Positions 36,135-55,423 are shown, counted from the first letter of the stretch. The stretch: DNA of 64,000 nucleotides from Chloroflexota bacterium (GCA_034189695.1 JAXHUA010000141.1:3341-67340), one strand, 5' to 3'. Numbers and translations are program-made. Notes: generated by a model from the letters alone, not told the origin.

Positions 36135-36739
36135 TGCGCGTTGGAGTGCTTGGGGGAACCTTCGACCCGATTCACAATGGGCACGTGAAGGTCGCCGAGG
36201 AAGCCAGCGAGAAGCTGAGCCTCGCTCGCGTGCTGTTCGTGCCGGCTGGCGAACCGTGGCTCAAGGGCCACAGGATGCTGACAGGCGCCAGCCATCGGCT
36301 GCAAATGGTGAAGCTTGCGGTCGCGCTCGACAAGCGCTTCGAGGTATCGACCGTGGATCTTGACCGAGCCGGGCCGTCATACACCGAGGACACGCTCTCT
36401 GCACTGCAACGCCGGCTTGGAGCAGACGCCGAGCTGTATTTCATCCTGGGCGCTGATGCGCTCAAGGAGTTCGACAAATGGAGGAACCCGCATCGCATTG
36501 TAGCGATGTGCCACCTCGTGGCACTGAAGAGGCCTCGCTGCCCCTTGCCAGACCTGGCGGGTCTGGAGAGCGCAGTGCCGGGCATCTCAGAGCGCACCAT
36601 CGTCCTCGATAATCAGCCCATCGACATAACATCGAGCGATATCCGGAATCGCGTTCAGCAGGGCCTTCCTATAGCTGACCTGGTGCCGCAGCCTGTGGAG
36701 CGATACATTCGGGAATACTGTCTCTACGGGAATACGTAG
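36134..36739 (+). CDS. nadD: nicotinate-nucleotide adenylyltransferase
   Basis: GGTFDPIHNGH (H/T-x-G-H) and the ISSTxIR-like SSDIRNRV motif; the start overlaps the obg stop (TAGTG). Confidence 0.88.
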   Translation: MRVGVLGGTFDPIHNGHVKVAEEASEKLSLARVLFVPAGEPWLKGHRMLTGASHRLQMVKLAVALDKRFEVSTVDLDRAGPSYTEDTLSALQRRLGADAELYFILGADALKEFDKWRNPHRIVAMCHLVALKRPRCPLPDLAGLESAVPGISERTIVLDNQPIDITSSDIRNRVQQGLPIADLVPQPVERYIREYCLYGNT

Positions 36740-37257: not shown

Positions 37258-37317
37258 TCATCAAACACCGTAGAATTGGCGAGACAGGTTTGCGGGGCAC
37301 AGGTTCGGAGGTGTATA

Positions 37318-37956
37318 ATGGTTGTATCTTCCTTGAGGTGCAACGTGGGCCATGACCGCAGGCGGCTGATCCAAGAGGTGGTGACGGAGCACGCGCTGCT
37401 GCGCGGCGACTTCACTCTGTCATCCGGCGAGCAGTCGGACTACTACTTCGATGGTAAGATGGCGACGACGTTGCCCCAAGCCGCCTACCTCATTGCGCAG
37501 GAGGTATTTGAACTCATCAGGGGACAGGGCATTTCGGCCGTGGGAGGGTTGGCCATCGGGGCGGATCTCATTGTGGCGGCGGTTGCCATCGTCAGCTACC
37601 TGGAAGGCGAACCCATGCCCGCCTTCGTCATAAGGCACCAGGCAAAAGGGCACGGAACCGGGAAGCTGATCGAAGGCCAGTTCCCCAAGGTCAAGGGCGC
37701 GAGGGTAGCAGTAGTTGATGACGTCATGACGAAGGGCGGCTCGGTATTGAAGGGCATAAGGGCTGTGGAAGAGGAAGGCGCGCAAGTCGCGAAGGTCGTC
37801 GTGCTGCTCGACCGGCGCCAAGGGGGAACGGAGAGGCTCCTTGCCGAAGGCTATGATGTGGTGGCGATCCTTCATGGAAGCGAACACGGGGACGTAAGAG
37901 CCAATGAGTGTATGGAAGTTGCGCGACAAGCTACAGGAGGGTCTGCACCAAGATAA
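37318..37956 (+). CDS. pyrE: orotate phosphoribosyltransferase
   Basis: GDFTLSSGEQSDYYFDG, the PRPP-binding VAVVDDVMTKGGS, and conservation relative to E. coli PyrE. The ATG at 37318 follows a GGAGGTG RBS; the ORF tool opens at 37276. Confidence 0.8.
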   Translation: MVVSSLRCNVGHDRRRLIQEVVTEHALLRGDFTLSSGEQSDYYFDGKMATTLPQAAYLIAQEVFELIRGQGISAVGGLAIGADLIVAAVAIVSYLEGEPMPAFVIRHQAKGHGTGKLIEGQFPKVKGARVAVVDDVMTKGGSVLKGIRAVEEEGAQVAKVVVLLDRRQGGTERLLAEGYDVVAILHGSEHGDVRANECMEVARQATGGSAPR

Positions 37957-38236: not shown

Positions 38237-38408
38237 GTTCGTGCCGGGCATCTCAGAGCGCACTATCGTCCTCGACAATCAGCCCATCGACATAACATCG
38301 AGCGGTATCCGCAATCGCGTTGAGCAGGGCCTTCCTATAGCTGACCTGGTGCCGCCAGCTGTGAATGACTACATCGCCAAGCACAGCCTGTACACGCGCT
38401 CACCCTAG
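38237..38408 (+). pseudogene. duplicated 3'-terminal fragment of nadD (about 96% nt identity to 36575-36695)
   Basis: The DNA at 38241-38361 nearly duplicates the nadD 3' end; the translated fragment VPGISERTIVLDNQPIDITSSGIRNRVEQGLPIADLVP matches NadD residues 150-190; there is no N-terminal catalytic part. Confidence 0.8.
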
Positions 38409-38536
38409 CGAGCCCGGCGGGGAGAAGCGCCAGCGGACCCCGTCGTTCCCCATACTCACCCCAGAGAGCCACAATACACACTCCCTATTCCTGTAGTCCC
38501 ATAGCGACCAGTGTGTGCTTTTCAGGTCTCTACCTA

Positions 38537-38565
38537 TTGACAACGAAAGTTAAATATGCTATATC
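38537..38565 (+). promoter_or_regulatory. sigma-70 promoter (TTGACA-17-TATATC) with an approximately 225-nt leader upstream of the giant PAS-GGDEF gene
   Basis: TTGACA at 38537-42, a 17-nt spacer, and TATATC at 38560-65, in an AT-rich stretch; a short uORF (MEYQVPQFG) lies in the leader. Confidence 0.5.
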
Positions 38566-38793
38566 TTATCTGATACTACTTGTTGTTATCATGGAATACC
38601 AGGTGCCTCAATTCGGATGAAGGAGGCAGCGCGAATAAGGGGGAGAGGGAGGTGTTACAGGTATAGCGAGCGGGCGGGAGCTAATGGCCAAGGATGAAGC
38701 TGGCGAGGGGCATGCTGCGGCGTTGGCCGTTGTGTCATCTGGCTGGACAGGCCACACCGCACGGCGGGGCAATGTCCGTTGGAGGGGTCGCGG

Positions 38794-41700
38794 ATGCAGC
38801 ATGACGGCACGAAAAACCGAATAGCGCCTGATCAAAACGGCAAAGACGACAGCCACAGTGCCGACGAGGTGCTGATGCTGTCGCGATGCGCCATGGACCT
38901 GGTGGAGCTGTCGCCAGATGATGACGTTTTCCACTTCATTGGTGAGCGGCTTCTTGAACTGGCCGGGGACTGCTACATTGTCGTGAACTCTTTTGATGAG
39001 GCGACAGGACAATTCTGCCTTCGACACGTGCTCGGTGCGAGGCAGCCAGTGCAGGCGATAGCGAGGGTAATGGGCCGACACCCCGTCGGCCTGTCAGTCC
39101 CCATCCGCAGCGAGGGGCGCCGGGGACTGACAACCGGCAGGCTGGAGCTGGTGCCGGGAGGACTGTATGAGATTGGCGCCGGCAGTATGCCCCGGCGTGT
39201 GTGCAGAGGTATCGAGATGGCACTGGGCGTGGCCCATTGGCATGCCATCGGTTTCGCGTGGCGAGGGCAGCTCTTCGGCAGCGCCATTGTGGCAACGCGC
39301 AAGCCGCCGCCGCCGAGGACAGTCAGGCTTATCGAGGCTTTCATCAAGGAGGCCTCAGTGGCATTGCAGCGCTGGCTGGCCGAAGAGGCCCTGAGGAAGG
39401 CGCATGCAGATTTGGAGCAGCGCGTTGAGGAGCGCACCAGGGAGCTATCCGATGCCGTGTCGCGACTGGAGGCGGAGATCGCGGAGCGCGCCAAGGCGGA
39501 GGAGCAGTTGAAGCGGGAGCGCACCGCCCGTGACGCCATAGTCAGTTTGAACCCCTACGCTATATCGATGTACGACTCTGAGGGGCACTTCACCAGCGGG
39601 AATCAGGCGTTCCAGGAGCTGTTCGGGTCAACGCCGCCCAGTGACTACTCCCTTTTCACCGACCCGATCCTCCTGGCCAACGGCTATCTGGAAGAACTCC
39701 TGAAGCTGAAGAAGGGCGAAGCGGTTCCCCTTCCCGCTGTGTGGTACAACCCGCACTTGGTCAGGGCCGACGTGCCCGATGCCCCGCGCTACGTGCGCGG
39801 CGTGGCATTCCCCATCAAGGGCGGCGGCGACGAGATCCGCGGCATAGTCGCTATGCATGAGGACGTCAGCGAGAGCACGCGTCGCGACGAGGAGTTGCAC
39901 CTGAAAGACTGCGCGCTCGCGGCGTCAATCAATGCCATCGCCCTGGCCGACTCAGATGGAAGGCTGACCTACGTCAATGCGGCGTTCCTGAAGCTGTGGG
40001 GGTACGATGACGACAAGCAGGTCATCGGGCGCCCCTCCAGGGAGTTCTGGCAGGCGAGCAGGAACCTCGCCGGGCATGCCGGGGCGAAGCCCGGCGGATG
40101 GCGCGGCGAGGCGATTGGAGTGAACAGGGAAGGCGCTGCCTTCGTTGTCGAGCTTTCGGCAAGCGTCGTGACTGACGGCGACGGCCAACCCGGCTTCACG
40201 ATGGCCTCGTTCATCGATGTGACGGAACGGAGGCGGCTGGAGGACGTCCTTCGGGAGTCGGAGGAGCTCTCAAGGGGGATGCTCAGCGCAGCCCGCGCCG
40301 CTGTATACATCGTGCAGGACGGCTGTTTCCTGTATGTCAATCCTCAGTTTGAGCAGATAACGGGTCGCGCCATGGCCGAGCTGTCTGGAGCGCATTGTCT
40401 CGAACATGTCCACCCCGACGACAGGAAGGCGGTGAGGCAGAAGGCCGTAGAGCAGCTCAAGGGTCAGAGCACCCCCCCATACGAGTTCAGGTACATGTGC
40501 AAGGACGGCAGGACGCTGCATCTCATGGAGAAGGTGGCGTCCATCATGTACAAGGGGAAGCCCACCACCGTTGGAAGCTTCATGGATGTCACCGACCTGA
40601 AGCGTGCCCAGGACGAACTGTCGCGGAGCGAGGAACGGTATCGCAGCCTCATCGAAACGGCGGGAGCGGGGGTGGCTACGGTGGACCATGAGGGGAGACT
40701 GGCGTTCGTCAACGGCGCTCTCTGCGCCATGGTGGGCCGAGCCGAAGACGAGCTTCTTGGAGAACCCGTGACCGACCTGGTGCATGCTGACGACCGGCCC
40801 AAGATCGCCGGTCTGCTCGGCAAGGTGTCCGGGACACTTCTATCGGGCAGGGTGGTTGAGTTCAGGGCGATTCACCGGGACGGGCATGTAGTATGGTGCC
40901 ACACGTGTCCCACCATGGTCCGGCGGGAGGACGGGACGGCTGGCTTCAACGCCATCATCCATGACGTCACCGAACGGAAGCTGCTTGAGGACCGCTTCAG
41001 GTCGCTCATTGAGCACGCGTTCGACGTGATCGAGATCCTGGACGAGAGTGGCATTATCCAGTACGCGAGCCCGGCGGTGGAGAGCGGGCTGGGGTACAAG
41101 CCCGAGGAGGTGCTGGGGCAGAACGCCCGCGCCTTTCTGCACCCAGATGACGCGGGGAGACTGGGAAGCCTCCTGGCGGAGCTGGTTGAAGACCCTGGGG
41201 GCACCAGCCGCACTCAGTTCAGGTGCCGCCACAAGGACGGGTCGTGGCGCCACCTCGCCGTCGTGGGGCAGAACCATCTTGACGACCCGGCAGTAGCCGG
41301 CATCGTCGTGAACGCCCGGGATATCACGGAAAGCAAGCTGGCTGATGAGGCGGTCAGGCGGAGCCAGAGGGAACTGCTGCAGATTGTCGATGGAAGTTCC
41401 ATTCCCATGTTTGTCGTCAACAGTGAGCATGTTGTCACGCACTGGAACAGGGCGTGCGAGAACCTCACCGGCATGCTCGCGGCGGATGTAGTAGGCACCA
41501 GCGAGCACTGGGCCCCGTTCTACCCTGAGTCACGGCCCCTGATGGCCGATCTGGTAGCCGACAACGTGCCACAGGGCGAGATGGCCGAGCACTACAACGG
41601 CCGGTTCGCTCGCTCCACCCTGGTAGAGGGCGCGTTCGAAGCGGAGGGCTTCTTCCCGAAACTTGGGGAGCAGGGCAAGTGGCTGTACTTCACCGCAGCG

Positions 41701-44700
41701 CCGTTGCGAGACGACGACGGCCACACTGTCGGCGCCATAGAGACGCTGCACGACACCACGGACCGAAGGCGAGCAGAGGAAGACCTCTTCGAGAGCGAGG
41801 AGAAGTACCGGCACCTGTTTGGCAATGCCCAGGCAGCGCTCTACCGGACCAGCGTATCCGACGGCAGGGTCCTTGAGTGCAATGAGGTTTACGCGCGGCT
41901 CCTCGGCTATGACAGCCGCGAGCAGTGCCTCGCCGAGCGCGTCGCATCGCACCACTACTTGGACCACGGCACCCGTGACCGCCTGTTGCGACAACTCCGA
42001 GAACAGGGCGAGATCAGGGACGCCGAGGTCGAGGTCACTCGCCGTGACGGTACACCAGTCTGGTTGAGCTACTCGGCGCGGCTCTACGCCGAGAGAGACT
42101 GCATCGAAGGGGCCGTCATAGACATTACGGAAAGCAAGAAGGCGCAGGAAGCCCTTCGTCTCTCCGAAGAGCGATACCGGCTGCTCATCGAGAATGCCAA
42201 CGAGGCCATCATAGTGGCCCAGGACGGGGCATTCAAGTACGCCAACGCCAAAGCCGGAGAGATGACGGGCCTCTCGCTGGAGGAACTGGCGGCAACACCC
42301 TTCATGGATGTTATCCACCCGGACGACCGCCAGCTGGTGGCCGAGCGTCACATGCGCCGTCTCCAGGGCGAAGAGTTCGAACACGTCTACTCCTTCCGGA
42401 TGGTGGACCGGGAGGGGAACATCAAGTGGGTGCAGATAAACGCAGTGCTGATGGAATGGCAAGGCAGGCCGGCCACTCTGAATCTCCTCACCGACGTCAC
42501 GGAGAAGAAGGAGGCGGAGAACCAGCTGCGCGAGAGCGAAAGCCGCTACCGCCTTCTCGCTGAGAACGTGACCGATGTCATCTGGACGCTGGATGACAAG
42601 CTCAAGTACACGTATCTGAGTCCTTCTGTCGAACGTCTGCTGGGCTTCACCGTTGAGGAGGCCTGTGCCAAGACCCTTGAAGACAGGCTGACGCCGGACT
42701 CGCTGGGAGTGGTGAGGAAGGCGATGGAGGAGGAGTTGCTCAAGGCGGGCCCGCCGTATCGGACGACGTCGACCATGGAACTGGAGCAGTACCGAAAGGA
42801 CGGCTCGACAGTGTGGACTGAGGCCAGCATGACTCTTCTCCGCGACGCGAATGACGAAGTGCAGGGAATGCTGGGCATCACGCGTGACATCAGCGAGCGC
42901 AAGCAGGCCGAGGAGGCGGTGCGTGAGAGCGAGGCGCGCTTCCGGCGGTTTGTAGGGAACGCCCCCGACATCACCTTTCGCTGGTCGGTGGAGGAGGGCC
43001 TCGAGTACGTAAGTGCCAGTGCACTCCGTGTGACAGGCTACACGCCTGAGGAGCTGCTCACCGACCCGGAGCTGGCGGCGGGGATATCCAGGGCCCGCGA
43101 CCTCGACATGGGGCTTGACTACCGCCAGGCAGCCGCGGAGGGACATGCGCTGCCGCCACGGGAGTTTGCCTTCGCGCGGCGCGGTGGCGGCGAGGCGTAT
43201 CTGGAGATACGGGCCGTGCCTCTGGTTGACGGCAGCGGGGAACTTACCGCCTTCGAAGGCATCCTGCGGGACATCACCGAGCGCAAACAGGTCGAGGAAG
43301 CGCTGCGGCGCAGCGAGGAATTCAGTTCAAGCCTGCTGGCGAACGCGCCGAGCGCCATTCTGGTGGTCAATCCGGATAGCTCCATACGCTACGTCAATCC
43401 GGCGTTGGAGGAACTCACTGGCTTCTCCGCAGGTGAACTCATGGGCAGCGGGCCTCCCTACCCCTGGTGGACCGTAGACGCCCTCGAGCGAACGGGGCGA
43501 GACCTGATGGATGCCATCCCGAGGGGCGCTCGAGGGCTCGAGCAGTTGTACCGGAAGAAGAACGGGGAGGACTTCTGGGTCGAGCTCACCGCCGTTCCCA
43601 TCATCGAGACCGACGGAGAGCTGAAGTATCATCTGGTCACCTGGGTCGATATCACCGAGCGCAAGCAGGGAGAGGAAGCGCTGCGGCACTCCGAGTACAA
43701 GTATCGCACCGCCATCGAGTCGGCCAGAGACGGGGTGCTTATCCTCAACCGCGATTGGGTCATCGTTGATGCCAACAGGATGTCCGTCAGCAGCGTGGGC
43801 TACGACTACAAAGAGCAGCTAGTTGGGAGGAGTATCGCCGATGTCGTGGACGACGATACTGCAGGTGGGCTGGGCGAGACGCTGCGGGGGACCCTGGAGA
43901 AACACGGCTACCTGGCGAACCTTGAGGTGACGGCGCGCACCAGGGACGCGAGAAGCTTGCCGGTGCAGGTGAACATCTCACAGGTTCTTGACCGCTGGGG
44001 TGAGCCGACCAGCTACATGGTTGTGGTGAGGGACGTCAGCGAGCGCAAGCGGGCCGAAGAGGCGGCCCAGCGGTACACCAGAAACCTCGAGGCGCTGCAC
44101 GCTATCAGTATTGCTGTGAGCCAGACTTTGGACCTGGACGAGATGCTGGAGAGCGCGCTGGACAAGGTGCTCAAGGTGACCGGGACGGACGCCGGCTACA
44201 TACATCTCTTCGATGCCGAACGCCGGGAGTTGGTGCTTAAGGCGCATCGTGGGTTGTCCGAGCGCTACGTGGCCGCCATTGAGACCATGGGCGTGAGCGA
44301 GGAAGCCATGAAGCGCTGGCACGACGCCTATCCGGAGCCGGCCTTCAGGATGCGGCGCATTCTGAGCGAGCCGTCTTTCGCAGCTGCGAACTCTGCTGGG
44401 CGGGAGGAGAGCATTCACACCAGCGTGGCGGTCCCGCTCTGGTCCAAGTCAGTGATGCACGGGGGACTGACCCTTGTTTCGCATGCGCGTCGTCGGTTCA
44501 AGCCCGAGGAGCTGGAGCTTCTCGAGGCCATCGGCAACGAGATAGCGGTGGGGATTGAGAATGCCAAGCTGTTGGAGAGGACGAAGGAGCTTTCCGCTAC
44601 CGACGAGTTGACCGGCCTGTACAACCGCCGCCAGTTCTTCGAGCTACTGGAAGGCGAGTTGAACCGGATGCACCGCTACGGCGGCTCGTTCACTCTGGCC

Positions 44701-45714
44701 ATGGTGGACCTGGACGAGTTCAAGGAGTACAACGACAGGTTCGGGCACAGCAACGGCGATGCCCTGCTCAGGTCCGTGGCGCAGGCGCTGAGGTCCGAAC
44801 TCAGGAAGCCCGACATGGCGTTTCGCTACGGGGGCGACGAGTTCACCATCATCCTGCCGGAGACAGACGCGGAGAAGGCCAAGGGCATCATCGACCGCCT
44901 GAGGTTGGCCCGGATGGAAGTGCTCCAGACAGACGGCTACACTTCACGCCTTTTCCTCAACTTCAGTGCCGGGATCGCCGAGTTCCCGCAGAATGCCGAG
45001 ACAGCCGATGGCCTGGTGTTCCTGGCTGACACCGCGCTCTATCATTCGAAGAGGGCCGGGGGCAACCGGTCGACGCTGGTGTCGGATTTGGGTGAGCTGG
45101 CGGCAGACGTCGTCGACAGTGCCACTATGGACCAGGTATACGCCCTGGCCGCAACGGTCGACGCGAGAGATCCCCACACCTACGGTCACTCGAAGCGGGT
45201 GGCGACAGTATCCGAGATGATCGGCACGGCGATCGGGCTTCGGCCGAAGCAGATAAGTGACCTGCGGGCCGGGGCGCTTCTTCATGATATCGGCAAGGTG
45301 GGCGTGCCCGACTCGATCCTGACCAAGCCCGATAGGCCTTCGGAGCCTGAGTGGATGATTATTCGCAAGCACCCGGTCGAAGGCGCGAAGATCGTGGGAT
45401 ACGTGAAGGAGCTGGAGGGGCTGGTGCCTCTGATACGGCATCACCACGAGTGGTACGATGGCAGCGGCTACCCCGACGGACTCAGGGGAGAGAAAATACC
45501 TTTGGGTGCTCGAATCATCAGTGTTGCCGACGCGTACGACACAATGACCACGCCGCGCCCTTACCGGCAGGTCGTATCGTCGGACGAGGCCTGTAGGGAG
45601 CTGGAGCGCTGCTCAGGCACTCAGTTCGATCCGCGCCTGGTTAAGGCATTCCAGGCGGCGTTGAAGGAAAAAGCGCAGGTTGAAGCGCGTCAGGCAGAGC
45701 ACTTCCCCCTGTAG
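38794..45714 (+). CDS. giant multi-PAS (about 13 PAS/PAC) - GAF - GGDEF - HD-GYP signalling protein (bifunctional c-di-GMP cyclase/phosphodiesterase candidate)
   Basis: About 2306 aa. Repeated PAS/PAC blocks (SEERYRxL..., ITERKxAEEAL linkers); GAF (LEALHAISIAVSQTLDLDEML); GGDEF with an intact RKPD I-site and a GGDEF motif (FRYGGDEFTII); HD-GYP (HDIGKVGVPD...HHEWYDGSGYPDGL). The ATG at 38794 follows a GGAGGGG RBS; the ORF tool opens at TTG 38779. Confidence 0.85.
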   Translation: MQHDGTKNRIAPDQNGKDDSHSADEVLMLSRCAMDLVELSPDDDVFHFIGERLLELAGDCYIVVNSFDEATGQFCLRHVLGARQPVQAIARVMGRHPVGLSVPIRSEGRRGLTTGRLELVPGGLYEIGAGSMPRRVCRGIEMALGVAHWHAIGFAWRGQLFGSAIVATRKPPPPRTVRLIEAFIKEASVALQRWLAEEALRKAHADLEQRVEERTRELSDAVSRLEAEIAERAKAEEQLKRERTARDAIVSLNPYAISMYDSEGHFTSGNQAFQELFGSTPPSDYSLFTDPILLANGYLEELLKLKKGEAVPLPAVWYNPHLVRADVPDAPRYVRGVAFPIKGGGDEIRGIVAMHEDVSESTRRDEELHLKDCALAASINAIALADSDGRLTYVNAAFLKLWGYDDDKQVIGRPSREFWQASRNLAGHAGAKPGGWRGEAIGVNREGAAFVVELSASVVTDGDGQPGFTMASFIDVTERRRLEDVLRESEELSRGMLSAARAAVYIVQDGCFLYVNPQFEQITGRAMAELSGAHCLEHVHPDDRKAVRQKAVEQLKGQSTPPYEFRYMCKDGRTLHLMEKVASIMYKGKPTTVGSFMDVTDLKRAQDELSRSEERYRSLIETAGAGVATVDHEGRLAFVNGALCAMVGRAEDELLGEPVTDLVHADDRPKIAGLLGKVSGTLLSGRVVEFRAIHRDGHVVWCHTCPTMVRREDGTAGFNAIIHDVTERKLLEDRFRSLIEHAFDVIEILDESGIIQYASPAVESGLGYKPEEVLGQNARAFLHPDDAGRLGSLLAELVEDPGGTSRTQFRCRHKDGSWRHLAVVGQNHLDDPAVAGIVVNARDITESKLADEAVRRSQRELLQIVDGSSIPMFVVNSEHVVTHWNRACENLTGMLAADVVGTSEHWAPFYPESRPLMADLVADNVPQGEMAEHYNGRFARSTLVEGAFEAEGFFPKLGEQGKWLYFTAAPLRDDDGHTVGAIETLHDTTDRRRAEEDLFESEEKYRHLFGNAQAALYRTSVSDGRVLECNEVYARLLGYDSREQCLAERVASHHYLDHGTRDRLLRQLREQGEIRDAEVEVTRRDGTPVWLSYSARLYAERDCIEGAVIDITESKKAQEALRLSEERYRLLIENANEAIIVAQDGAFKYANAKAGEMTGLSLEELAATPFMDVIHPDDRQLVAERHMRRLQGEEFEHVYSFRMVDREGNIKWVQINAVLMEWQGRPATLNLLTDVTEKKEAENQLRESESRYRLLAENVTDVIWTLDDKLKYTYLSPSVERLLGFTVEEACAKTLEDRLTPDSLGVVRKAMEEELLKAGPPYRTTSTMELEQYRKDGSTVWTEASMTLLRDANDEVQGMLGITRDISERKQAEEAVRESEARFRRFVGNAPDITFRWSVEEGLEYVSASALRVTGYTPEELLTDPELAAGISRARDLDMGLDYRQAAAEGHALPPREFAFARRGGGEAYLEIRAVPLVDGSGELTAFEGILRDITERKQVEEALRRSEEFSSSLLANAPSAILVVNPDSSIRYVNPALEELTGFSAGELMGSGPPYPWWTVDALERTGRDLMDAIPRGARGLEQLYRKKNGEDFWVELTAVPIIETDGELKYHLVTWVDITERKQGEEALRHSEYKYRTAIESARDGVLILNRDWVIVDANRMSVSSVGYDYKEQLVGRSIADVVDDDTAGGLGETLRGTLEKHGYLANLEVTARTRDARSLPVQVNISQVLDRWGEPTSYMVVVRDVSERKRAEEAAQRYTRNLEALHAISIAVSQTLDLDEMLESALDKVLKVTGTDAGYIHLFDAERRELVLKAHRGLSERYVAAIETMGVSEEAMKRWHDAYPEPAFRMRRILSEPSFAAANSAGREESIHTSVAVPLWSKSVMHGGLTLVSHARRRFKPEELELLEAIGNEIAVGIENAKLLERTKELSATDELTGLYNRRQFFELLEGELNRMHRYGGSFTLAMVDLDEFKEYNDRFGHSNGDALLRSVAQALRSELRKPDMAFRYGGDEFTIILPETDAEKAKGIIDRLRLARMEVLQTDGYTSRLFLNFSAGIAEFPQNAETADGLVFLADTALYHSKRAGGNRSTLVSDLGELAADVVDSATMDQVYALAATVDARDPHTYGHSKRVATVSEMIGTAIGLRPKQISDLRAGALLHDIGKVGVPDSILTKPDRPSEPEWMIIRKHPVEGAKIVGYVKELEGLVPLIRHHHEWYDGSGYPDGLRGEKIPLGARIISVADAYDTMTTPRPYRQVVSSDEACRELERCSGTQFDPRLVKAFQAALKEKAQVEARQAEHFPL

Positions 45715-45828
45715 GGCGAATCCGTGAAAGCCAGTCATCCGCCAGACAAGCGAACTGAGAGTCACGACGGCTCCGCACACGGGCGGGGGCGGCAGGTGTA
45801 CGGAGCAAAGAGGACTGAGGGACAACCG

Positions 45829-48800
45829 ATGGACGAACTGACGAACACAGGACAGCGAGCTGCCGCATCGGCGGAAACGCATTCCGCTGGGTCGGTGACG
45901 CCGGACGATGGGCTGTACCGCTCTTTTGCCGAGTACGCCTCCGATTTCATCTGGACCATGGACATGAGCCTGCGCTACACCTACGTCAGTCCATCCGTGA
46001 CAAGCCTCCTGGGCTACACTGTCGAGGAGGCGAAGGACCTGAGGCTGGAAGACTTGATGGACCAACAGTACATTGACCTGGCTGCCAGCGTGCTGGCTGA
46101 GGAGTTGTCGGTCCAGCAGACACCTGACCTGGGGAAGTCGCGAACCTTGGAGTCCGAGCTGAAGCGCAAGGATGGTTCGACCGTGTGGGTCGAGTCAAGG
46201 ATGAAGTTCGTGCGAGATGCGAACGGGGAGCGAGTAGGCATCTCGGGGATCTCGCGTGACATAACGGAGCGGAAGCAGGCTCAGCAGAAGATAGAGCACC
46301 TCACACGGTTGTTGCGTGCCATCCGCAATGTCAATCGGCTCATTACGAAAGAGAGGGACCGCGACGCGCTGCTGGAGGCGGCGTGTCGCAATCTCGTTGA
46401 CACCCCGGGCTATGACAGCGCGTGGGTCTGTGTGTTTGGCGAACGTGGACGGCCGGTGTCCGTTGCTCAGGCCGGTCTGGGGGCGTGTTTCGTGCCGATG
46501 GAGGAGTGGCTGGTCGGGGGCAACCTGTCGAGCTGTGGTGAGAAGGCTTCGAAGGGGCCTGGTGTGGTAGTAACCAGGGCCTCGACTCGCGCCTGCGGCG
46601 ATTGCCCGTTGCTCTCCTGTTGTGCCAGCAGCTTGGCTGTGACGACTCGACTGGAGTGCGACGGGAAAGTCTACGGCGTGCTGTCGATCGTAGCCCCCTT
46701 GTGGCTCAAACCAGACACGGAGGAGCGGATGCTGCTCCAGGAGGTGGCGATGGACATCGCCTTCGCTCTCCAGACCATGGAATCGGAGGAGGAGCGCCGG
46801 GGTGCGGAGGAGGCGCTGAAGGAGTCAGAGGAACTCTCCCGGGGCCTGCTGGAGGCGGTGACGGTCGGGACGTACATTGTCCAGGACGGCAAGTTCCAGT
46901 ACGTGAACCCGCGGTTCCAGGAGATAACAGGTTACACCGGGCACGAGCTCCTCGGTACCCAGTCTCTGGACTACGTGCATACCGAGGACAGGGAGACGGT
47001 CCGTGGGAAGGCGATAGACTGTCTCAAGGGCAGGAGCAGTTCGGCCTACGAGTACCGGTACCTGCGCAAGGACGGCGACGTACTGTGGATTCTGGAGAGG
47101 GTGGCATCCATCGTGCATCGGGGGCGCCTGGCTACGGTGGGCAGCTTCATGGACATCACCGAGCGCAAACGCGCAGAGCACGCGCTGCGCGATAGCGAGG
47201 AGAAATACCGCAACCTGGTCGAACGAGCCAACGACGGTATCCTGATCATCCAGGGGGGCATCATCAAGTACGCCAACCAACGGTTGGCCGAGATGGGCGG
47301 GTATACGCTGAGCGACCTGATCGGGGTCCCATTCATCAGCTTCGTCCACCCTGACGAAGTCCGCAATGCGGCCAATCGCTACAAGCGACGGATGGCGGGA
47401 GAGACCCTTGAATCCGTGTACGAGACTGTTCTCAGGCGCAAGGACCGGTCCGACCTCCACGCCGAGATCAATGCCGGGGTGGTCACATACGATGACAGTG
47501 CCGCCGACCTGGTCTTCGTCCGCGACACCACAGAGCGCAGGATGGCTGAGGAGAACGCGCGGCAGTCCGAGATCAAGTATCACACCGCTCTCGAATCGGC
47601 GCGGGACGGTATCATCATAATCGACTCGGACGGCATCGTCGTTGATGTCAATCAAACGTGCCTGGGTGCGTTGGGATGCAACTCCAAAGACGAGGTGGTG
47701 GGGTCCCATGTTGTCGGCCTGCTGGCGCCGGAAACCCAGCGGCAAATGGAGCGGGGACTGCGGGGGAGTCTTGAAAAGACGCTGGTCGAGGGCAAGGGGT
47801 ACGTCACCAATCTCGAACTGGTGGCGCGCTCCGCAGACGGAAGGCAGTTCCCCATTGAGGTGAACGTTTCGCGCCTGAGCGATGAAAGGGGTCAGGGGAG
47901 AGGGAGCGTGATCGTGATTAGAGACATCACGGAGCGCAAGCGCGTGGAGAAGCAGCTCCTCGACCACACGATGCGCCTCGAGGCCCTTCATGCCATAAGC
48001 GCCGCGGTGATCCAGTCGCTCGATCTGGACACCATGCTGAAGAGCGCGCTCGACAAGGTGGTCGAGGTCATCGGAGCGAACGCTGGGTACATACACCTGT
48101 TCGACACTGAAAGCAGGGAACTGGTCCTGAAGGCGCAGCGCGGCCTCTCACAGCGGTACATTGAAGCGATAGGCAGACTCAGCGTGCGTGAGGAGGCGAT
48201 GCAGCGCTGGGCGACATACCCGGAGCCATCGTTCCGACCGGACGGCATCGTCGACCAGTTGGGCGACCGGTCGGTGGGCGCTGCCGACGGGTCCGACATG
48301 CTGCGGATTCTGGTGTCCATACCGCTGTGGTCGAAATCAGGAATGCAGGGGGGCCTTACGCTTGTTGGGAACACGTCGCGCCACTTCCCCCCCGAGGAAC
48401 TCGACCTCCTCAAGGCCATCGGCAACGAGATAGCGGTAGGAATAGAGAACGCCAGATTGCTTGGAAAGACCAAGCAGCTCTCCATAACGGATGAGCTGAC
48501 GGCGCTGCACAATCGCCGCCACTTCTATGAGGTGCTGGAGAACGAGATGAACCGCACCCAGCGCTACGGTCACTCCTTCTCACTGGTGATGGTCGACCTC
48601 GATGGTTTCAAGGAGTACAACGACAAGTACGGCCACACCAACGGTGATACCGTGCTGAGGTCGCTTGCCCAGATGCTCAAATCGTTGCTGAGGAAGAGCG
48701 ACACCGCGTTCCGCTACGGTGGAGATGAGTTCACCATCATTCTCCCTGGTACCGAGGTAGAGAAGGCGAAGAAGATAGTCGACCGGATACGGGACAGATG

Positions 48801-49611
48801 GCCGGAGATACCGAAGGCGGAATCGGCGGCACTGGATAACCCGCTGGGGTTCAGCGCCGGCATCGGCCAGTACCCCGACGATGCCGAAACCGCCGATGGA
48901 CTGATATTCCTCGCCGACACCGCCCTGTATCACTCCAAGAGGACCGGCGGGTACAGGTCAACCGTTGTGTCCGACCTGCCGAGCCTGGCGTTGAAGCATC
49001 ACGACAGAGCCACGCTGGACCACGTGTACGCCCTCTCGGCGACGGTGGACGCCAGGGACCCGTTCACTTACGGCCACTCCGAACGAGTCGCCACGATAGC
49101 GGAGATGATTGGGAGGGCGGCGGGTCTGCCCCCGGAAGAACTCGCCGACCTGGAGTTTGGCGCTCTGCTGCATGACATTGGCAAGGTTGGCGTTCCCGAC
49201 TCGATTCTCACCAAACCCGACAAACTCACTGAAAAGGAGTGGAGGGTGATGCGTAAGCATCCGGGTGAGGGAGCGAAGATAATCGGGCATGTCAAGGAGC
49301 TGGCTTCCGTGGTTCCCATGGTGCGGCACCATCACGAGTGGTACGATGGCAGCGGGTATCCGGACGGGATCAAGGGTGAAGAGATTCCCATCTGCGCTCG
49401 AATCATCAGCATAGCGGACGCCTATGACACCATGACCACGCTGCGTCCCTATCGGGTGCCAATGTCGCAGAGGGCGGCGTTGGAGGAACTGCGGCGCTGC
49501 TCCGGCACTCAGTTTGACCCGGAGCTGGTCGAGCACTTCGCCAGCGTTCTGAGTGAGGCGGATGCCCATGACGCAACGGGGGCGAAGTCGGTGTTCCCAG
49601 CGCGAAAATAG
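45829..49611 (+). CDS. paralogous multi-PAS - Cys-rich GAF-like - PAS - GAF - GGDEF - HD-GYP signalling protein
   Basis: About 1260 aa (1295 aa if the GTG at 45724 is used). The C-terminal 600 aa are highly similar to the upstream gene (LEALHAISAAVIQSLDLDTML, RKSD I-site, FRYGGDEFTIILPG, HDIGKVGVPD...HHEWYDGSGYPDGI). There is a Cys-rich insert (CGDCPLLSCC...LECDG) at about 46380-46700. Confidence 0.85.
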   Translation: MDELTNTGQRAAASAETHSAGSVTPDDGLYRSFAEYASDFIWTMDMSLRYTYVSPSVTSLLGYTVEEAKDLRLEDLMDQQYIDLAASVLAEELSVQQTPDLGKSRTLESELKRKDGSTVWVESRMKFVRDANGERVGISGISRDITERKQAQQKIEHLTRLLRAIRNVNRLITKERDRDALLEAACRNLVDTPGYDSAWVCVFGERGRPVSVAQAGLGACFVPMEEWLVGGNLSSCGEKASKGPGVVVTRASTRACGDCPLLSCCASSLAVTTRLECDGKVYGVLSIVAPLWLKPDTEERMLLQEVAMDIAFALQTMESEEERRGAEEALKESEELSRGLLEAVTVGTYIVQDGKFQYVNPRFQEITGYTGHELLGTQSLDYVHTEDRETVRGKAIDCLKGRSSSAYEYRYLRKDGDVLWILERVASIVHRGRLATVGSFMDITERKRAEHALRDSEEKYRNLVERANDGILIIQGGIIKYANQRLAEMGGYTLSDLIGVPFISFVHPDEVRNAANRYKRRMAGETLESVYETVLRRKDRSDLHAEINAGVVTYDDSAADLVFVRDTTERRMAEENARQSEIKYHTALESARDGIIIIDSDGIVVDVNQTCLGALGCNSKDEVVGSHVVGLLAPETQRQMERGLRGSLEKTLVEGKGYVTNLELVARSADGRQFPIEVNVSRLSDERGQGRGSVIVIRDITERKRVEKQLLDHTMRLEALHAISAAVIQSLDLDTMLKSALDKVVEVIGANAGYIHLFDTESRELVLKAQRGLSQRYIEAIGRLSVREEAMQRWATYPEPSFRPDGIVDQLGDRSVGAADGSDMLRILVSIPLWSKSGMQGGLTLVGNTSRHFPPEELDLLKAIGNEIAVGIENARLLGKTKQLSITDELTALHNRRHFYEVLENEMNRTQRYGHSFSLVMVDLDGFKEYNDKYGHTNGDTVLRSLAQMLKSLLRKSDTAFRYGGDEFTIILPGTEVEKAKKIVDRIRDRWPEIPKAESAALDNPLGFSAGIGQYPDDAETADGLIFLADTALYHSKRTGGYRSTVVSDLPSLALKHHDRATLDHVYALSATVDARDPFTYGHSERVATIAEMIGRAAGLPPEELADLEFGALLHDIGKVGVPDSILTKPDKLTEKEWRVMRKHPGEGAKIIGHVKELASVVPMVRHHHEWYDGSGYPDGIKGEEIPICARIISIADAYDTMTTLRPYRVPMSQRAALEELRRCSGTQFDPELVEHFASVLSEADAHDATGAKSVFPARK

Positions 49612-49649
49612 CGATGGCTGGTGGGGCGTGCTGCCGGGCGGCGTGACGG

Positions 49650-51560
<1,911 letters not shown>

Positions 51561-51644: not shown

Positions 51645-52082
51645 TTATAGCACAGAGCCCCGTTCATTGGAAGTTGCCGCCTCTTGACTTAGCTTCCACC
51701 GGACGTAGCTCAGGTAGGGCAAAAGCTCCACCTTCTCTTGCTCGCTCAACTGTGAGAAGGGATCAACCGCACTGGGGATTTCGTCCTTAAGCGAAGCCAC
51801 CAGGTCCATGGGTATGCGGTTGAGGGCTTTGCACAGCTCGACGTAGCGCACCCCATACACACTGGCCCACATAGCCAGCGCTCCGTCCTTGGGCTTCTTC
51901 CACCCCCCTTCTACTTGGTACACGAAACCGGGCGAGACGCTGAGCTTCGTGGCTATGTCCGCCACGCGCGGAATACGTCCACTGACGTCTTCACGCAAGC
52001 GGCTTCTGGCGTCCCGTAACCGGTTGCCAAGCACCGCGTAGGGGCGTCGCTTCCTGGAGCCCGTGTCCAACACGTGGGACAT
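51645..52082 (-). CDS. XRE-family HTH transcriptional regulator (phage-repressor-like) with leaderless start
   Basis: HTH_XRE (LGNRLRDARSRLREDVSGRIPRVADIATKLSVSPGFVYQVEGG). The ATG at 52082 lies immediately downstream of a -10 TAATAAT; the ORF tool extends to TTG 52109. Confidence 0.7.
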   Translation of the reverse strand: MSHVLDTGSRKRRPYAVLGNRLRDARSRLREDVSGRIPRVADIATKLSVSPGFVYQVEGGWKKPKDGALAMWASVYGVRYVELCKALNRIPMDLVASLKDEIPSAVDPFSQLSEQEKVELLPYLSYVRWKLSQEAATSNERGSVL

Positions 52083-52083
52083 T

Positions 52084-52148
52084 ATTACACCAAATTGTGC
52101 AAAAGTCAAGCTTATGTATTGACATTTTCAACCATTTGGTGTAGTATG
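52084..52148. promoter_or_regulatory. divergent promoter/operator region: inverted repeat ACACCAAAT...ATTTGGTGT flanking face-to-face promoters
   Basis: 9-bp arms at 52087-95 and 52134-42. Minus-strand -35 TTGACT/-10 TAATAAT serves the XRE gene. Plus-strand -35 TTGACA (52119-24), 17 nt, TAGTAT (52143-48) points rightward. Confidence 0.5.
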
Positions 52149-52260
52149 TATCCGCAATCCCCATCAGAGTTGTTGTTCTGGGGACACCCCCAGACCCCCG
52201 CCAGAGGGGAGCCTCCTCCAGGCTCCCCTCCGTGATTTGACCGGCGGTTGGGTCTCCGCT

Positions 52261-52977
52261 TCACTTCCTCACCCCGTCCAGGATGAACATGGAGCCGGCG
52301 TATATCTGGCCGATGACAGGCGTGACGGTGATCCTGGATATCCTCGAGGTGGTGTTGTTCCACCTGCCGGTAATGTGGCGTAGAGAGGAGCTTCCCAGGC
52401 CGGCAAAGCTGAGCCACTCCTTTTGCACTGTGGCGTCGCGGTTCTGGATGTAGATGAAGGCAACTCCGTAGTGGAGGTCGTCGAACATACCGAGCACGCC
52501 GAAGGTGTTCGCCTCTACCAGCGTGGTGCGTACACCGCTCGAGTCGGCGAGAAGGTCGCGGAAATCGTAGTTCTGTCCGTCGTCGTCGTTGAAGCGAAGG
52601 CCGGTGGACATGGGGCCGCCGTACGTTGACCTTCTGATGAGGGCGAGAAGCCTGAAGGCGGCGTGGTCCGCGGAGAGTCCCTCGAAGTCCACCGCCGTGG
52701 CGTTCTCGTCGAGGACTCTTGTCTCGATGTGTTCCCAGGGCCAGCCGCGCTGGCTGTGGCCCGAGGTGGAGAAGACGGCGGTCACCACGGCATCGTGCGG
52801 GTTGGACTCGTCCAGGAAGATGACGGCGCAGGGCAGGCCGGGGACCATCGTCGCCGGGGGTATGGCGCGTGACACGGGCACCCCTTCGAGCCACACCGAA
52901 AGACTGCCGGCAACCTGTACTGTGGCGGTGTAGGACTGGGGATCGAAGCCCTGTATGATTCCCTTTCTGATCATCAT
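52261..52977 (-). CDS. phage-like structural protein with N-terminal gpV/gp5-type OB-fold (baseplate spike-like), tentative
   Basis: The N-terminus GIIQGFDPQSYTATVQVAGSLSVWLEGVPV...GLPCAVIFLDESNPHDAVV resembles the Phage_base_V/VgrG OB-fold pattern; 238 aa. Confidence 0.35.
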   Translation of the reverse strand: MMIRKGIIQGFDPQSYTATVQVAGSLSVWLEGVPVSRAIPPATMVPGLPCAVIFLDESNPHDAVVTAVFSTSGHSQRGWPWEHIETRVLDENATAVDFEGLSADHAAFRLLALIRRSTYGGPMSTGLRFNDDDGQNYDFRDLLADSSGVRTTLVEANTFGVLGMFDDLHYGVAFIYIQNRDATVQKEWLSFAGLGSSSLRHITGRWNNTTSRISRITVTPVIGQIYAGSMFILDGVRK

Positions 52978-53019
52978 GGCGCTCCCTTCGTGTTGCTCGG
53001 GGCAAGCCCTTCACATTCC

Positions 53020-54969
53020 TCAGGGCAGGCCCAAGGCCATTCTCAGCGTGTAGTCGGCGGTGGCTGGGCCCCATCCATGCGCGAGGGCCAGGACGCGGCG
53101 TCTTGCGCCGCACAGGCCCGCCTGAGGGGACGTCACGTCGATGACGTCGAACAGGTCCTGGCCGCAGTTCATCGGGGCCAGGAGTTCGCCCCCGAGCCTC
53201 TCCATCTCGGCGTCTCTGATGACTGCAACGCCCCGCTGATGCGCCTTGTCGGTCGTGTCGAGGTTGATGTCCTGTACCTGCACGAGCCGGTCGCAGACAT
53301 CTTCGATGTCGTTCCAGCTCCACTCCTCGGTCATCAGGGCATCGCCGAATACCTGGGCTCGGTTGGCGGAAGCGATCTCCTCCCGGTAGCGCCCGCGAAG
53401 GATGGCATGGTCCGTGCCGTAGCTGTACGTGCTCTCGTCGCTTGCCTGCGGGTTCGTCAGGTAGGCCTTCTGGGCGATGAACAGTATGACGTCGGGGACC
53501 ATGTCGAGCAGGCGCTGCACGGCGGTGAGGGCGCTCTGGCCGGGATGAATGGTGAAGGCGGGCGTCTGGATTATGGCGCTGGAGGGCGAGTACGAGGTGA
53601 GTTCGAGACCGGCCCGGGCGAAGAGGAAGGAGAGAAGCTGGAAGATGTTGCGTGCGCCTGCCTGCCAGGTGAACTGCCTCCTGGCGCGCCAGCGTTCCAG
53701 CAGTGACCACCCATCGCGGGCATGCAGGACGAAGGTGCTGTGCCCGGGCGCGGTGACGTGCTCCCACGCTTCCAGCCAGAAGGCGGGCGCGGTTGCGGAC
53801 TTGGGGCCTTCGGAGGTGTGGTAGCCCAGGCGGAGGACGGCCTCGCTGCCCGGAGTGATTGGGGACTGGGGGTCGTTGTAGCGGCCGTCGTCGTTGCGCA
53901 GGGTGAGTTGAAGGCGCCCCGAGAAAGGCCGGATGGCGGTTGTCAGGGCGATGACGTCGTCGGAGAGCTCTACGGACTGGGGGAGTATTCGGGCGCGCCA
54001 CACGGCGTACGGGGCGCAGAGCCAGGCGTGGGAGGCGTCGTGGGTCAGGACGACGCCGTAGGCGCTGTCGAGGTTGAAGGGCACCGGCTCGCGCCACAGG
54101 CTGGAGATGAAATCGGCGCTGGGGAGTGAATGGCTCCAGTGGGGGCGCGAGTATGGCTCGTCGCCGGCGTAGCGTTCGACGAAGAAGAGCCGGCAGACGT
54201 CGGGGATGTCCAGCGAGGGTGCGAGGTACTCGGTGTACGAGTCGGCGCTGGCGGCGATGACCTCCTGCAGCTCGGACCACGAGTCGGGGGCCATGGTGTA
54301 GCCGTCGCCCAGGACGCACGTCCACAGCCCTGGCCCGCCGGCGGCGTCAACGCCGCTCACCGCCGCGTTCCAGTCTCCAAAATGGACCACGGCGATGCCG
54401 GTCACGGCGGTGAGCGTGCTAGTCCAGGGTGCCGGCTGCTCCCAGACGCCTCCGATGCGGCGGCGCCGGTAGACTGTCGCCCCGTCGGAATACAGGACCA
54501 GCGCATCGCCGTTCGCCTTGAAGCAGGCGGCCACGCGGTAGTCGGCGCAGTCGCCGCCGATGTAGGTCATGTCGATGGGGTCGCCCCAGGTGTCGCCGCA
54601 GGTTGTGCTCTCCCTGCGCCGCAGCCAGCCGGTGCTCTGCACCCAGAAGGCGAGGACCTCATTGCCCCGCGAGCATACGGCCACGTCGGAGCCGGTGTAG
54701 CCCCAGTAGTACCAGTGTGAGAAGTCGCTCTCCGGCCCGGGGTCGGGGACGCGCTGGCGATAGATGCCGCCTCCGCCCCTGAGCCGTACCAGGCTGCCGT
54801 CGCCGGGCATGGTGGCGTCCGTGTGGCAGTCGGGCTCCTCGCCGCTGTACAGCCGCTCCCATCGCAGGCGGGTGGCTGCCCCGAGCTTCTCGACCAGTTC
54901 TACCCTGAGGTACGGCCTGGCCGTGGCGCTCCTCTGGGCGGCCAGCAAAGCGCTCGGCAGTGCTCTCAT
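53020..54969 (-). CDS. large phage-like structural protein (649 aa), beta-rich, possible tail/host-interaction or glycosidase-like protein
   Basis: No Walker motifs; Trp/Tyr/Gly-rich repeats (WYYWGYTGSD, YSDGATVYRRR) suggest a beta-propeller/BNR-like fold; positioned after the head genes. Confidence 0.35.
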   Translation of the reverse strand: MRALPSALLAAQRSATARPYLRVELVEKLGAATRLRWERLYSGEEPDCHTDATMPGDGSLVRLRGGGGIYRQRVPDPGPESDFSHWYYWGYTGSDVAVCSRGNEVLAFWVQSTGWLRRRESTTCGDTWGDPIDMTYIGGDCADYRVAACFKANGDALVLYSDGATVYRRRRIGGVWEQPAPWTSTLTAVTGIAVVHFGDWNAAVSGVDAAGGPGLWTCVLGDGYTMAPDSWSELQEVIAASADSYTEYLAPSLDIPDVCRLFFVERYAGDEPYSRPHWSHSLPSADFISSLWREPVPFNLDSAYGVVLTHDASHAWLCAPYAVWRARILPQSVELSDDVIALTTAIRPFSGRLQLTLRNDDGRYNDPQSPITPGSEAVLRLGYHTSEGPKSATAPAFWLEAWEHVTAPGHSTFVLHARDGWSLLERWRARRQFTWQAGARNIFQLLSFLFARAGLELTSYSPSSAIIQTPAFTIHPGQSALTAVQRLLDMVPDVILFIAQKAYLTNPQASDESTYSYGTDHAILRGRYREEIASANRAQVFGDALMTEEWSWNDIEDVCDRLVQVQDINLDTTDKAHQRGVAVIRDAEMERLGGELLAPMNCGQDLFDVIDVTSPQAGLCGARRRVLALAHGWGPATADYTLRMALGLP

Positions 54970-54978
54970 GTCGCCGCC

Positions 54979-55254: not shown

Positions 55255-55335
55255 GTTCTGTTCCTCCTTTCGTTTGGTGCTGGTTGTCGGTTTACGGCCT
55301 TTCGATGGGGCGGTGGGTGATTGAGGTGGGGGCCT

Positions 55336-55423
55336 GGGGCCGTTCATGCCCCTCACTTCGCTCGGGACAAGGTTCGACAGGCCTGCCCTGAGCTTGTCGA
55401 AGGGCTCACCACGAACGGCTGGG
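55336..55423. repeat. 88-bp repeat unit (MITE/REP-like), a perfect inverted copy of 58135-58222
   Basis: GGGGCCGTTCATGCCCCTCACTTCGCTCGGGACAAGGTTCGACAGGCCTGCCCTGAGCTTGTCGAAGGGCTCACCACGAACGGCTGGG. It contains an internal hairpin TTCGACA...TGTCGAA and imperfect terminal inverted repeats CCGTTC/GAACGG. Confidence 0.9.

Follow-up and report, generated by a model that had tools for sequence, protein, structure and literature searches.

Can a single protein chain both make and degrade cyclic di-GMP (c-di-GMP), with many sensor domains deciding between the two activities? The question is raised by two adjacent genes, here called P1 and P2, in a 64,000-nt stretch of DNA from a Chloroflexota bacterium (GCA_034189695.1 JAXHUA010000141.1:3341-67340; the whole stretch is called the window, and positions are counted from its start). 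Both genes encode arrays of PAS and GAF domains that end in a GAF-GGDEF-HD-GYP cassette, and their products are probably old paralogous, soluble, multi-sensor c-di-GMP turnover enzymes of Dehalococcoidales-like Chloroflexota, in which the sensors would set the balance between synthesis and hydrolysis. An earlier interpretation of this DNA, the sequence-only reading, had proposed ‘opposing activities gated by many inputs’, which is a reasonable inference. The two adjacent long genes that it described are indeed present, as intact open reading frames (ORFs) on the plus strand:

38794-45714, plus strand: P1 gene, 2306 amino acids (aa), from ATG 38794 to the stop at 45714; identical to MDY6918011.1
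45829-49611, plus strand: P2 gene, 1260 aa, from ATG 45829 to the stop at 49611; identical to MDY6918012.1

The exact P1 and P2 sequences are already deposited in NCBI, both under the name ‘PAS domain S-box protein’, on a 72,138-nt contig of a Chloroflexota metagenome-assembled genome (MAG), and the closest relatives in the genome collection are Dehalococcoidales MAGs. The genes in the window follow the order thrC-like, flavin reductase, folE, ABC, obg, nadD, then P1-P2, then gyrB. Repeat-rich multi-PAS genes in metagenome bins tend toward chimeric assembly, and the source here is a MAG. Assembly errors that collapse one very long gene had been named beforehand as a way in which the interpretation could fail; a chimeric gene, or one long gene broken by an error, would be artefacts of the same kind. 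Such an artefact is excluded for practical purposes, its probability being negligible. An independent assembler (Logan, run SRR24907504) gave a sequence 100% identical to the window over 38326-50220, that is 11,895 nt spanning both genes. The PAS units of P1 are at most 33% identical to one another at the protein level and therefore offer no long DNA repeats to collapse. Moreover, the two-gene layout, together with its spacer, flanking genes and collinear PAS orthology, recurs in three further lineages (L002, L003/L004 and L033/L034). Scanning of both proteins predicted no hydrophobic or transmembrane segment, which speaks against membrane anchoring, and P1 and P2 are for this reason expected to be cytoplasmic.

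The two chains close with the same three domains:

44050-44568, plus strand: P1 output-proximal GAF, aa 1753-1925; Pfam GAF_2 at 3e-16
44569-45087, plus strand: P1 GGDEF, aa 1926-2098; Pfam at 3.8e-43
45088-45714, plus strand: P1 HD-GYP, aa 2099-2306; HD_5 at 6e-36 and HD at 1.5e-24
47941-48456, plus strand: P2 output-proximal GAF, aa 705-876; GAF_2 at 4e-16
48457-48975, plus strand: P2 GGDEF, aa 877-1049; Pfam at 3.7e-44; RKSD I-site and GGDEF
48976-49611, plus strand: P2 HD-GYP, aa 1050-1260; HD_5 at 7.6e-42

The GGDEF domains score 147.5 bits (P1) and 150.8 bits (P2) with PF00990, for which the cutoff is 23.8, and the P1 domain matches diguanylate cyclases of the PDB at 1e-24 to 1e-33. Its active-site residues are the DxD pair D1972/D1974, the guanine-binding N1980 and D1989, R2011, the GGDEF motif at 2013-2017 and the phosphate-binding K2086/R2087, all of which are kept in P2 (DxD, Asn, Asp, Arg-GGDEF, Lys/Arg). 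The I-site RxxD lies five residues before GGDEF and reads RKPD in P1 (R2004-D2007) and RKSD in P2. Conservation was scored in 128 homologues of the GGDEF and HD-GYP unit that share 46-75% identity with P1; in this set all GGDEF catalytic positions and the I-site are 97-100% conserved, the I-site Arg in 128/128 and its Asp in 127/128. Cyclases of the Hypr type, which produce cyclic GMP-AMP (cGAMP), have Ser or Thr in place of Asp at the guanine-specificity position. Since this position is Asp (D1989 in P1) in 128 of the 128 family members, a Hypr cyclase is ruled out, and the GGDEF domains of P1 and P2 would make c-di-GMP rather than cGAMP from GTP. The A-site, the RxxD I-site and the guanine and phosphate contacts are common to PleD, WspR and the GAF/PAS-GGDEF cyclases in the PDB (1w25, 3bre, 3ign); unlike P1 and P2, cyclases of the PleD/WspR type have REC inputs and lack a phosphodiesterase domain.

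The hydrolase side is equally well defined. The HD_5 scores are 124.1 bits for P1 and 143.4 bits for P2, against a cutoff of 27.2, with 165 of the 170 profile positions covered, and the P1 domain aligns over about 185 residues with the solved structures 5z7c (3.4e-41) and 4mcw (1.9e-33). With the motif and the residue roles taken from Galperin and Chou (bioRxiv 10.1101/2021.11.05.467447), the metal ligands of P1 are H2132, H2164-D2165, H2193, H2217-H2218 and D2249, and GYP falls at 2225-2227 (motif HHHEWYDGSGYP). Both proteins carry the seven core metal ligands, HHExxDGxGYP, the substrate-contacting Lys and RPY(R/K). The core ligands and the motif are kept in 124-128 of the 128 homologues (97-100%), and conservation at this level in all the catalytic and substrate-contacting positions of the two domains points to purifying selection on both active sites throughout the family. 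Catalytic substitutions, which the sequence-only reading had itself named as damaging to its case, were looked for by alignment and none was found; degenerate catalytic sites are thus ruled out, and its statement that RxxD, GGDEF and HD...GYP are intact in both proteins holds and can be extended to the other metal ligands.

One position sets these domains apart from the structurally known PmGH. The acidic third-metal ligand of PmGH, E185, is replaced by His in P1 (H2128) and by Phe in P2; the commonest residues there in the 128 homologues are Tyr (71), Phe (21) and His (19), so that neither Asp nor Glu is among the three commonest. This replacement argues against a trinuclear HD-GYP of the PmGH type, and because of it the HD-GYP domains of P1 and P2 are expected to belong to the binuclear-metal class. 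This class is thought to stop at pGpG (Galperin and Chou), and pGpG would be the likely hydrolysis product. Both PmGH (Persephonella marina, GAF-HD-GYP, 4mcw) and V-cGAP3 (Vibrio cholerae, 5z7c) share with P1 and P2 a full HD-GYP domain with the same core ligands, HHExxDGxGYP and substrate contacts; neither of them, unlike P1 and P2, carries a fused cyclase.

In the mechanism that we infer, both activities would reside on each chain. P1 and P2 would form parallel dimers along their linker helices, and ligand or redox changes in single sensor domains would be relayed down the helical spine to the GAF-GGDEF-HD-GYP cassette. The relay would switch the output by setting the balance between conversion of GTP to c-di-GMP, for which two facing GGDEF domains are needed, and conversion of c-di-GMP to pGpG/GMP by HD-GYP, with product-inhibition feedback on GGDEF through the I-site. 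Each of the two proteins would in this way be a signal-set source or sink of c-di-GMP, and the two would read different inputs. Several points weigh against this mechanism. Literature searches found no enzymology for any GGDEF-HD-GYP fusion. No PAS or GAF domain of P1 or P2 could be given a ligand; the LOV flavin-Cys motif NC(R/K)FL and the c-type heme motif CxxCH have no match in either protein, which speaks against LOV and c-type heme PAS domains. The case for co-transcription, which is taken up below, consists solely of the absence of predicted signals in the spacer. The best solved match of the HD-GYP domain is a cGAMP-specific enzyme (5z7c), so the sequence does not settle the substrate preference. 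Finally, GGDEF-EAL hybrids typically contain one domain that lacks activity or has a regulatory role (PMC6205966), although such cases usually come with degenerate motifs.

The last point leads to the alternative that only one catalytic domain is enzymatic in vivo, with GGDEF serving as a GTP- or c-di-GMP-sensing regulator of HD-GYP, or HD-GYP as a c-di-GMP-binding regulator. Besides the many GGDEF-EAL hybrids in the same situation, inactive HD-GYPs that work by protein-protein contacts are known, and the conserved I-site could give allosteric control of the neighbouring domain. The known regulatory-only domains are, however, degenerate (HD to SE/HT, HHE to QLE/ANE), whereas the sites of P1 and P2 are intact, and near-invariance among homologues as diverged as those scored here is the signature of selection on both catalyses. 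A single working domain is rather unlikely.

The other uncertainty concerns what the hydrolase cleaves. Its substrate might be 3'3'-cGAMP or pGpG instead of c-di-GMP, in which case the protein would link two messenger pools. Some HD-GYPs hydrolyse cGAMP, and V-cGAP3, the 3'3'-cGAMP phosphodiesterase, is a better match than PmGH; but the gap in score to 5z7c is small and is no test of specificity. The fused cyclase, moreover, has the canonical guanine-specific Asp, and the c-di-GMP contacts of PmGH (the Lys, the Tyr of GYP and the Arg/Lys of RPYK) are conserved. Riboswitches speak in the same direction: c-di-GMP-I-type riboswitches stand before orthologues in relatives, and c-di-GMP signalling is present in this genome, as follows from a riboswitch of class II in the window:

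63672-63755, plus strand: c-di-GMP-II riboswitch aptamer; 65.4 bits against a gathering threshold of 53.5

A substrate other than c-di-GMP is very unlikely. Behind the aptamer come a terminator-like hairpin with a T-run (about 63740-63768) and an ORF that runs from GTG 63776 past the window end (64000), with a signal-peptide-like N-terminus and a Cys-containing mature part. This ORF, which lies 14 kb from P1 and P2, likely encodes a secreted or surface protein under c-di-GMP control.

The combination of GGDEF with HD-GYP on such long PAS arrays had been called uncommon. In a search with the 537-aa output unit, at least 7448 database proteins were found at E<=1e-20, and in the best 120 of these matches GGDEF was accompanied by HD_5/HD without exception (120/120), behind REC, PAS, GAF or HDOD inputs; many of these 120 are labelled Dehalococcoidia. 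A search with full-length P1 likewise brought up further GGDEF-HD-GYP proteins with PAS arrays (1450-2560 aa), together with many PAS-array kinases of 2000-4000 aa. In metagenomes of Chloroflexota the relatives of the output unit number in the thousands, and versions with PAS arrays beyond 2000 aa are among them. The co-occurrence of GGDEF and HD-GYP was seen in none of five alphaproteobacterial orders (PMC9756655), and this rarity probably explains the earlier impression, which is right for the well-studied Proteobacteria only and fails in the present lineage. Fusions of this kind were already mentioned when HD-GYP was described in 1999, and again in later reviews; examples in Galperin and Chou are Aquifex aeolicus Aq_2027, Methanocella arvoryzae RCIX2274 (REC-PAS-PocR-GGDEF-HD-GYP) and MASE9-HD-GYP-GAF-GGDEF, and the text consulted reports an enzymatic characterisation for none of them. 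The fusions catalogued there have in common with P1 and P2 a GGDEF and a full HD-GYP behind sensors of the PAS/GAF type and a predicted role in c-di-GMP turnover. The family of P1 and P2 differs in that its order is always C-terminal GAF-GGDEF-HD-GYP, and in a far longer sensor region (12 PAS in P1). As judged from sequence, P1 and P2 extend a known and locally abundant fusion type, and they agree with GGDEF cyclases and binuclear HD-GYPs in every feature tested.

The closest functional analogy is offered by the bifunctional GGDEF-EAL enzymes, in which a single chain under sensor control carries both opposing c-di-GMP activities; an example is BphG1 (Tarutina et al. 2006, via PMC6205966). The hydrolase of P1 and P2 is HD-GYP, with an unrelated fold and metal chemistry, and they are therefore not members of that family; no EAL (PF00563) match is found in either protein. 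The giant multi-PAS proteins of Dehalococcoidia and methanogens, which are histidine kinases, HD-GYP-only or GGDEF-EAL proteins of 1500-4000 aa, share the same PAS units, DITERK-type linkers, GAF-like module and 4-Cys GAF (described below), but differ in output. Their GGDEF and HD-GYP subset comprises P0127, P0128, P0129, P0131, P0135, P0137, P0138, P0141-P0143 and P0203.

How are the two genes related to each other? The sequence-only reading had called their C-terminal units ‘nearly identical’, which is not the case: the identity between P1 and P2 is 59% in GAF, 65% in GGDEF and 67% in HD-GYP, and BLASTP aligns them at 51% over 927 aa. The P1 output unit is 73% identical to P1-type orthologues elsewhere and 63% identical to P2 of its own genome. 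Similarly, P1-type and P2-type proteins form two sister clades in a neighbour-joining tree of the GAF-GGDEF-HD-GYP unit from the window and related loci, which are arranged as follows:

L003/L004 (Dehalococcoidales MAG): obg-nadD-[2561 aa]-[1230 aa]-gyrB(-)
L033: nadD-[2321 aa]-[840 aa]-gyrB(-)
L002: [2065 aa]-[840 aa]
L031/L032, 8001-11945: a single P1-type gene of 1314 aa between nadD and gyrB

The tree, the identities and the shared nadD-gyrB layout indicate that the duplication predates the split of these lineages and was retained in tandem. The tandem duplication is old, and at least four Dehalococcoidales lineages have preserved the pair between nadD and gyrB; a recent duplication is ruled out by the tree and the identity matrix. 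In L031/L032 either the second gene was lost or the lineage branched before the duplication was fixed.

P1 has the order GAF-like, coiled coil, 12 PAS, GAF, GGDEF, HD-GYP, with the following parts upstream of the output-proximal GAF:

38836-39459, plus strand: N-terminal GAF-like domain and start of a long coiled-coil helix, aa 15-222
39526-44049, plus strand: array of 12 PAS units, aa 245-1752; every unit closes with D[IV][ST]E[RS]K and a helical linker
41338-41769, plus strand: PAS6, with no counterpart in P0127 or P0128
41770-42138, plus strand: PAS7, with no counterpart in P0127 or P0128

The limits of the PAS units were set by D[IV][ST]E[RS]K, which recurs along both chains and gives 12 boundaries in P1 and 4 in P2. 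Pfam recognises 11 PAS, one GAF, GGDEF and HD_5/HD in P1, and the domain E-values across P1 and P2 range from 1e-16 to 1e-126, well outside what chance would give. The PAS unit below the Pfam cutoff is PAS1 (aa 245-362), a divergent copy that covers the full length of PAS_9 with 22.6 bits against a cutoff of 27. The array itself had thus been recognised correctly, while its size had been put at about 13 PAS; there are 12 units, 11 firm and one divergent, behind a GAF-like head. This head (aa 15-222) has no Pfam match. Its AlphaFold model has a confidence score (pLDDT) of 89.4, the Foldseek matches are phytochrome and other GAF domains (probability 1.0, TM score 0.5-0.66), and hhalign pairs it with the 4-Cys GAF profile at 70% probability and E = 4e-5. 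The segment is therefore GAF-like by its modelled fold and, on profile comparison, appears to be a remote relative of GAF. The same module recurs internally in many PAS-array proteins of 2000-4000 aa, for example P0167, P0158, P0146 and P0212 (twice).

P2 has the order PAS, 4-Cys GAF, three PAS, GAF, GGDEF, HD-GYP, and Pfam finds in it four PAS (all above the cutoff), two GAF, GGDEF and HD_5/HD:

45916-46275, plus strand: PAS1, aa 30-149; nearest to P1 PAS9 (49%)
46282-46830, plus strand: 4-Cys GAF, aa 152-334; Pfam GAF at 5e-9
46816-47940, plus strand: PAS2-PAS4, aa 330-704; nearest to P1 PAS3 (55%), PAS8 (38%) and PAS12 (39%)

About five PAS domains and a Cys-rich module had been proposed for P2; the module exists and is a GAF domain, and the PAS domains number four. 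The P2 units thus correspond to P1 PAS9, PAS3, PAS8 and PAS12, in an order partly different from that of P1. In P1 the low identity among the PAS units implies that the array is old and rules out a recent internal amplification. For its PAS1-5 and PAS8-12, P0127 contains orthologues in collinear order that are 45-69% identical, and both P0127 and P0128 carry extra PAS units of their own. The minimal P2-type protein (840 aa) retains only a PAS3-like and a PAS12-like unit; the P2 of the window has gained its N-terminal PAS and the 4-Cys GAF. Gain, loss and reordering of whole PAS/GAF units among P1-type and P2-type proteins are supported by these alignments. The proposal of a duplication followed by reshuffling of the sensors therefore survives, given the sister clades and the unit-wise changes, with the correction that the duplication is old and not recent.

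The 4-Cys GAF takes its name from cysteines 186, 236, 256 and 259 of P2, in the pattern C-x49-C-x19-C-x2-C-P, which are 99-100% conserved in the 150 best homologues (P0248-P0397); five additional cysteines in the copy of the window are not conserved. By exhaustive HMMER search the domain has 7447 representative homologues at E<=1e-3, of which 726 reach E<=1e-30; many are about 45-50% identical across all 180 residues. Set against these figures, the two matches returned by a word-indexed search are misleading. The subfamily is very widespread and is present in many multi-sensor proteins. Pfam lists no family devoted to it, and its profile gave only weak generic GAF matches in the PDB, with no close solved structure. 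The AlphaFold model of the domain (pLDDT 92.1) has the GAF fold by Foldseek, and free methionine-R-sulfoxide reductase (fRMsr) is among the matches. A [3Fe-4S] GAF is known as a cysteine- and cofactor-bearing sensor in CSK/Hik2 (PMC6949291). Both this domain and fRMsr (PDB 3ksf, 3mmh) are alike to the 4-Cys GAF in fold and use it for cysteine redox chemistry; there is no sequence relationship beyond the fold, and the cysteine pattern is specific to the 4-Cys GAF family. With cysteine or Fe-S GAF domains known as sensors or catalysts, a redox or metal input is the best guess, and P2 probably responds to such a cue via the four invariant cysteines.

Whether the pair is expressed together depends on the DNA around it, where the following features lie:

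38535-38565, plus strand: promoter-like block, with TTGACA at 38537-38542, a 17-nt spacer ending in TG at 38557-38558 and the -10-like TATATC at 38560-38565
38566-38793, plus strand: P1 leader, about 225 nt, with the ribosome-binding-site-like GGAGGGG 7 nt before ATG 38794
38591-38620, plus strand: upstream ORF (uORF) of 9 codons in the P1 leader
38684-38824, plus strand: ORF of 46 codons, out of frame and overlapping the P1 start
45715-45828, plus strand: P1-P2 spacer, 114 nt

In five lineages (the window, L002, L003, L031 and L033) the P1 orthologue is preceded by the invariant sequence TATTGACAA-N14-TGnTA(A/T)TAT, the copy of the window having a 1-nt deletion in the -10 element. A generic promoter scan missed the block because the last base of its -10 is C. 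The block would fit a sigma-70 promoter with an extended -10, giving a 5' untranslated region of about 225 nt. In the P1-P2 spacer no promoter-like or terminator-like site was found, and GAGGGA lies 6 nt before the ATG of P2. The two genes would most likely be transcribed together from the conserved sigma-70-type promoter, which lies some 225 nt before P1.

The leader with its uORF and overlapping frame, as described in the sequence-only reading, exists and agrees with the 225 nt given there (the frame has 46 codons and not 45), but the translational control proposed for it found no support. Four orthologous leaders were compared, and neither the uORF nor the 46-codon ORF is kept in them; such control was dropped for that reason. 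Likewise, the predicted fold of the leader is no more stable than that of shuffled sequences (z = -1.13), and Rfam searches over 38380-38850 and 45550-45900 gave no relevant match at the gathering threshold and none at E<=10. A riboswitch or structured RNA in the leader or in the spacer is therefore ruled out for the window. The relatives differ in this respect. The spacer is longer in L002 and L033/L034, where it holds a c-di-GMP-I-GGC riboswitch in front of the 840-aa P2 orthologue (L002 7498-7590, L033 7848-7940 and L034 2144-2236; 64.5-72.8 bits, gathering threshold 59); this riboswitch is absent from the window and from L003. A riboswitch of c-di-GMP type ahead of a c-di-GMP enzyme implies feedback in those relatives. 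A further c-di-GMP-I match before the P1 orthologue of L002 (880-956) is borderline, at 37 bits against a threshold of 35, and has no counterpart in L033, the closest relative of L002; it is therefore not relied on.

A more ambitious interpretation can be built from the same observations. The GAF-GGDEF-HD-GYP cassette might be an obligately bifunctional ‘set-point’ module for c-di-GMP, typical of Dehalococcoidia, in which neither site ever loses its activity and the sensors flip the dimer between cyclase and hydrolase geometries. P1 and P2 would then act jointly, possibly as heterodimers through their homologous cassettes, so as to integrate two sensor sets; the 4-Cys GAF of P2 would sense redox state in a new way, through Fe-S or thiols; and P2 of the sister lineages would be under feedback by the c-di-GMP-I-GGC riboswitch, which would have been lost in this genome. 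As a whole this interpretation is unlikely. That P1 and P2 are sensor-controlled turnover enzymes, each adjusting its own balance of synthesis and hydrolysis, is preferred to it.

The current understanding is unchanged by these findings, and known c-di-GMP biology is extended to the poorly studied Chloroflexota; the literature searches gave nothing specific on c-di-GMP signalling in Dehalococcoidia. The family is of use in three ways. GGDEF-HD-GYP fusions have been catalogued for 25 years with no enzymology found in the literature, and this family, in which more than 100 diverged members keep both active sites unchanged, is a clean test of dual activity on one chain. Likewise, nadD-[P1][P2]-gyrB is a natural series for the growth and shrinkage of PAS arrays by whole units, with one or two genes, 840-2561 aa, and with or without a riboswitch. 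The 4-Cys GAF is a cheap target in the search for a new redox or metal sensor: it has about 7,400 representative homologues, and neither a Pfam family of its own nor a solved structure.

Other features of the window lie outside the gene pair. The 3' end of nadD is repeated at 36575-36697 and 38241-38363 (93.5% over 123 nt), and the two copies flank an insert of about 1.66 kb that is absent from L003, L031 and L033 and holds small ORFs, including one with a phosphoribosyltransferase domain (37276-37956). The arrangement suggests that the insert entered nadD at its end and restored the 3' end of the gene in doing so. Two T-box leaders, at 6627-6874 (plus strand) and 12663-12951 (minus strand), score 94 and 93.5 bits against a gathering threshold of 93; they precede a 1034-aa ORF (6894-9998) and a 455-aa ORF (11136-12503, minus strand), which are presumably aminoacyl-tRNA synthetase genes. 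From about 52000 to 64000 the G+C content climbs from about 0.61 to 0.67-0.69. This region includes several long ORFs without a Pfam match (52112-57745), a gene resembling Type ISP restriction-modification enzymes (58466-61681) and an SPP1-type phage portal gene (61868-63238, minus strand), and it may be a prophage or genomic island beside the core locus.

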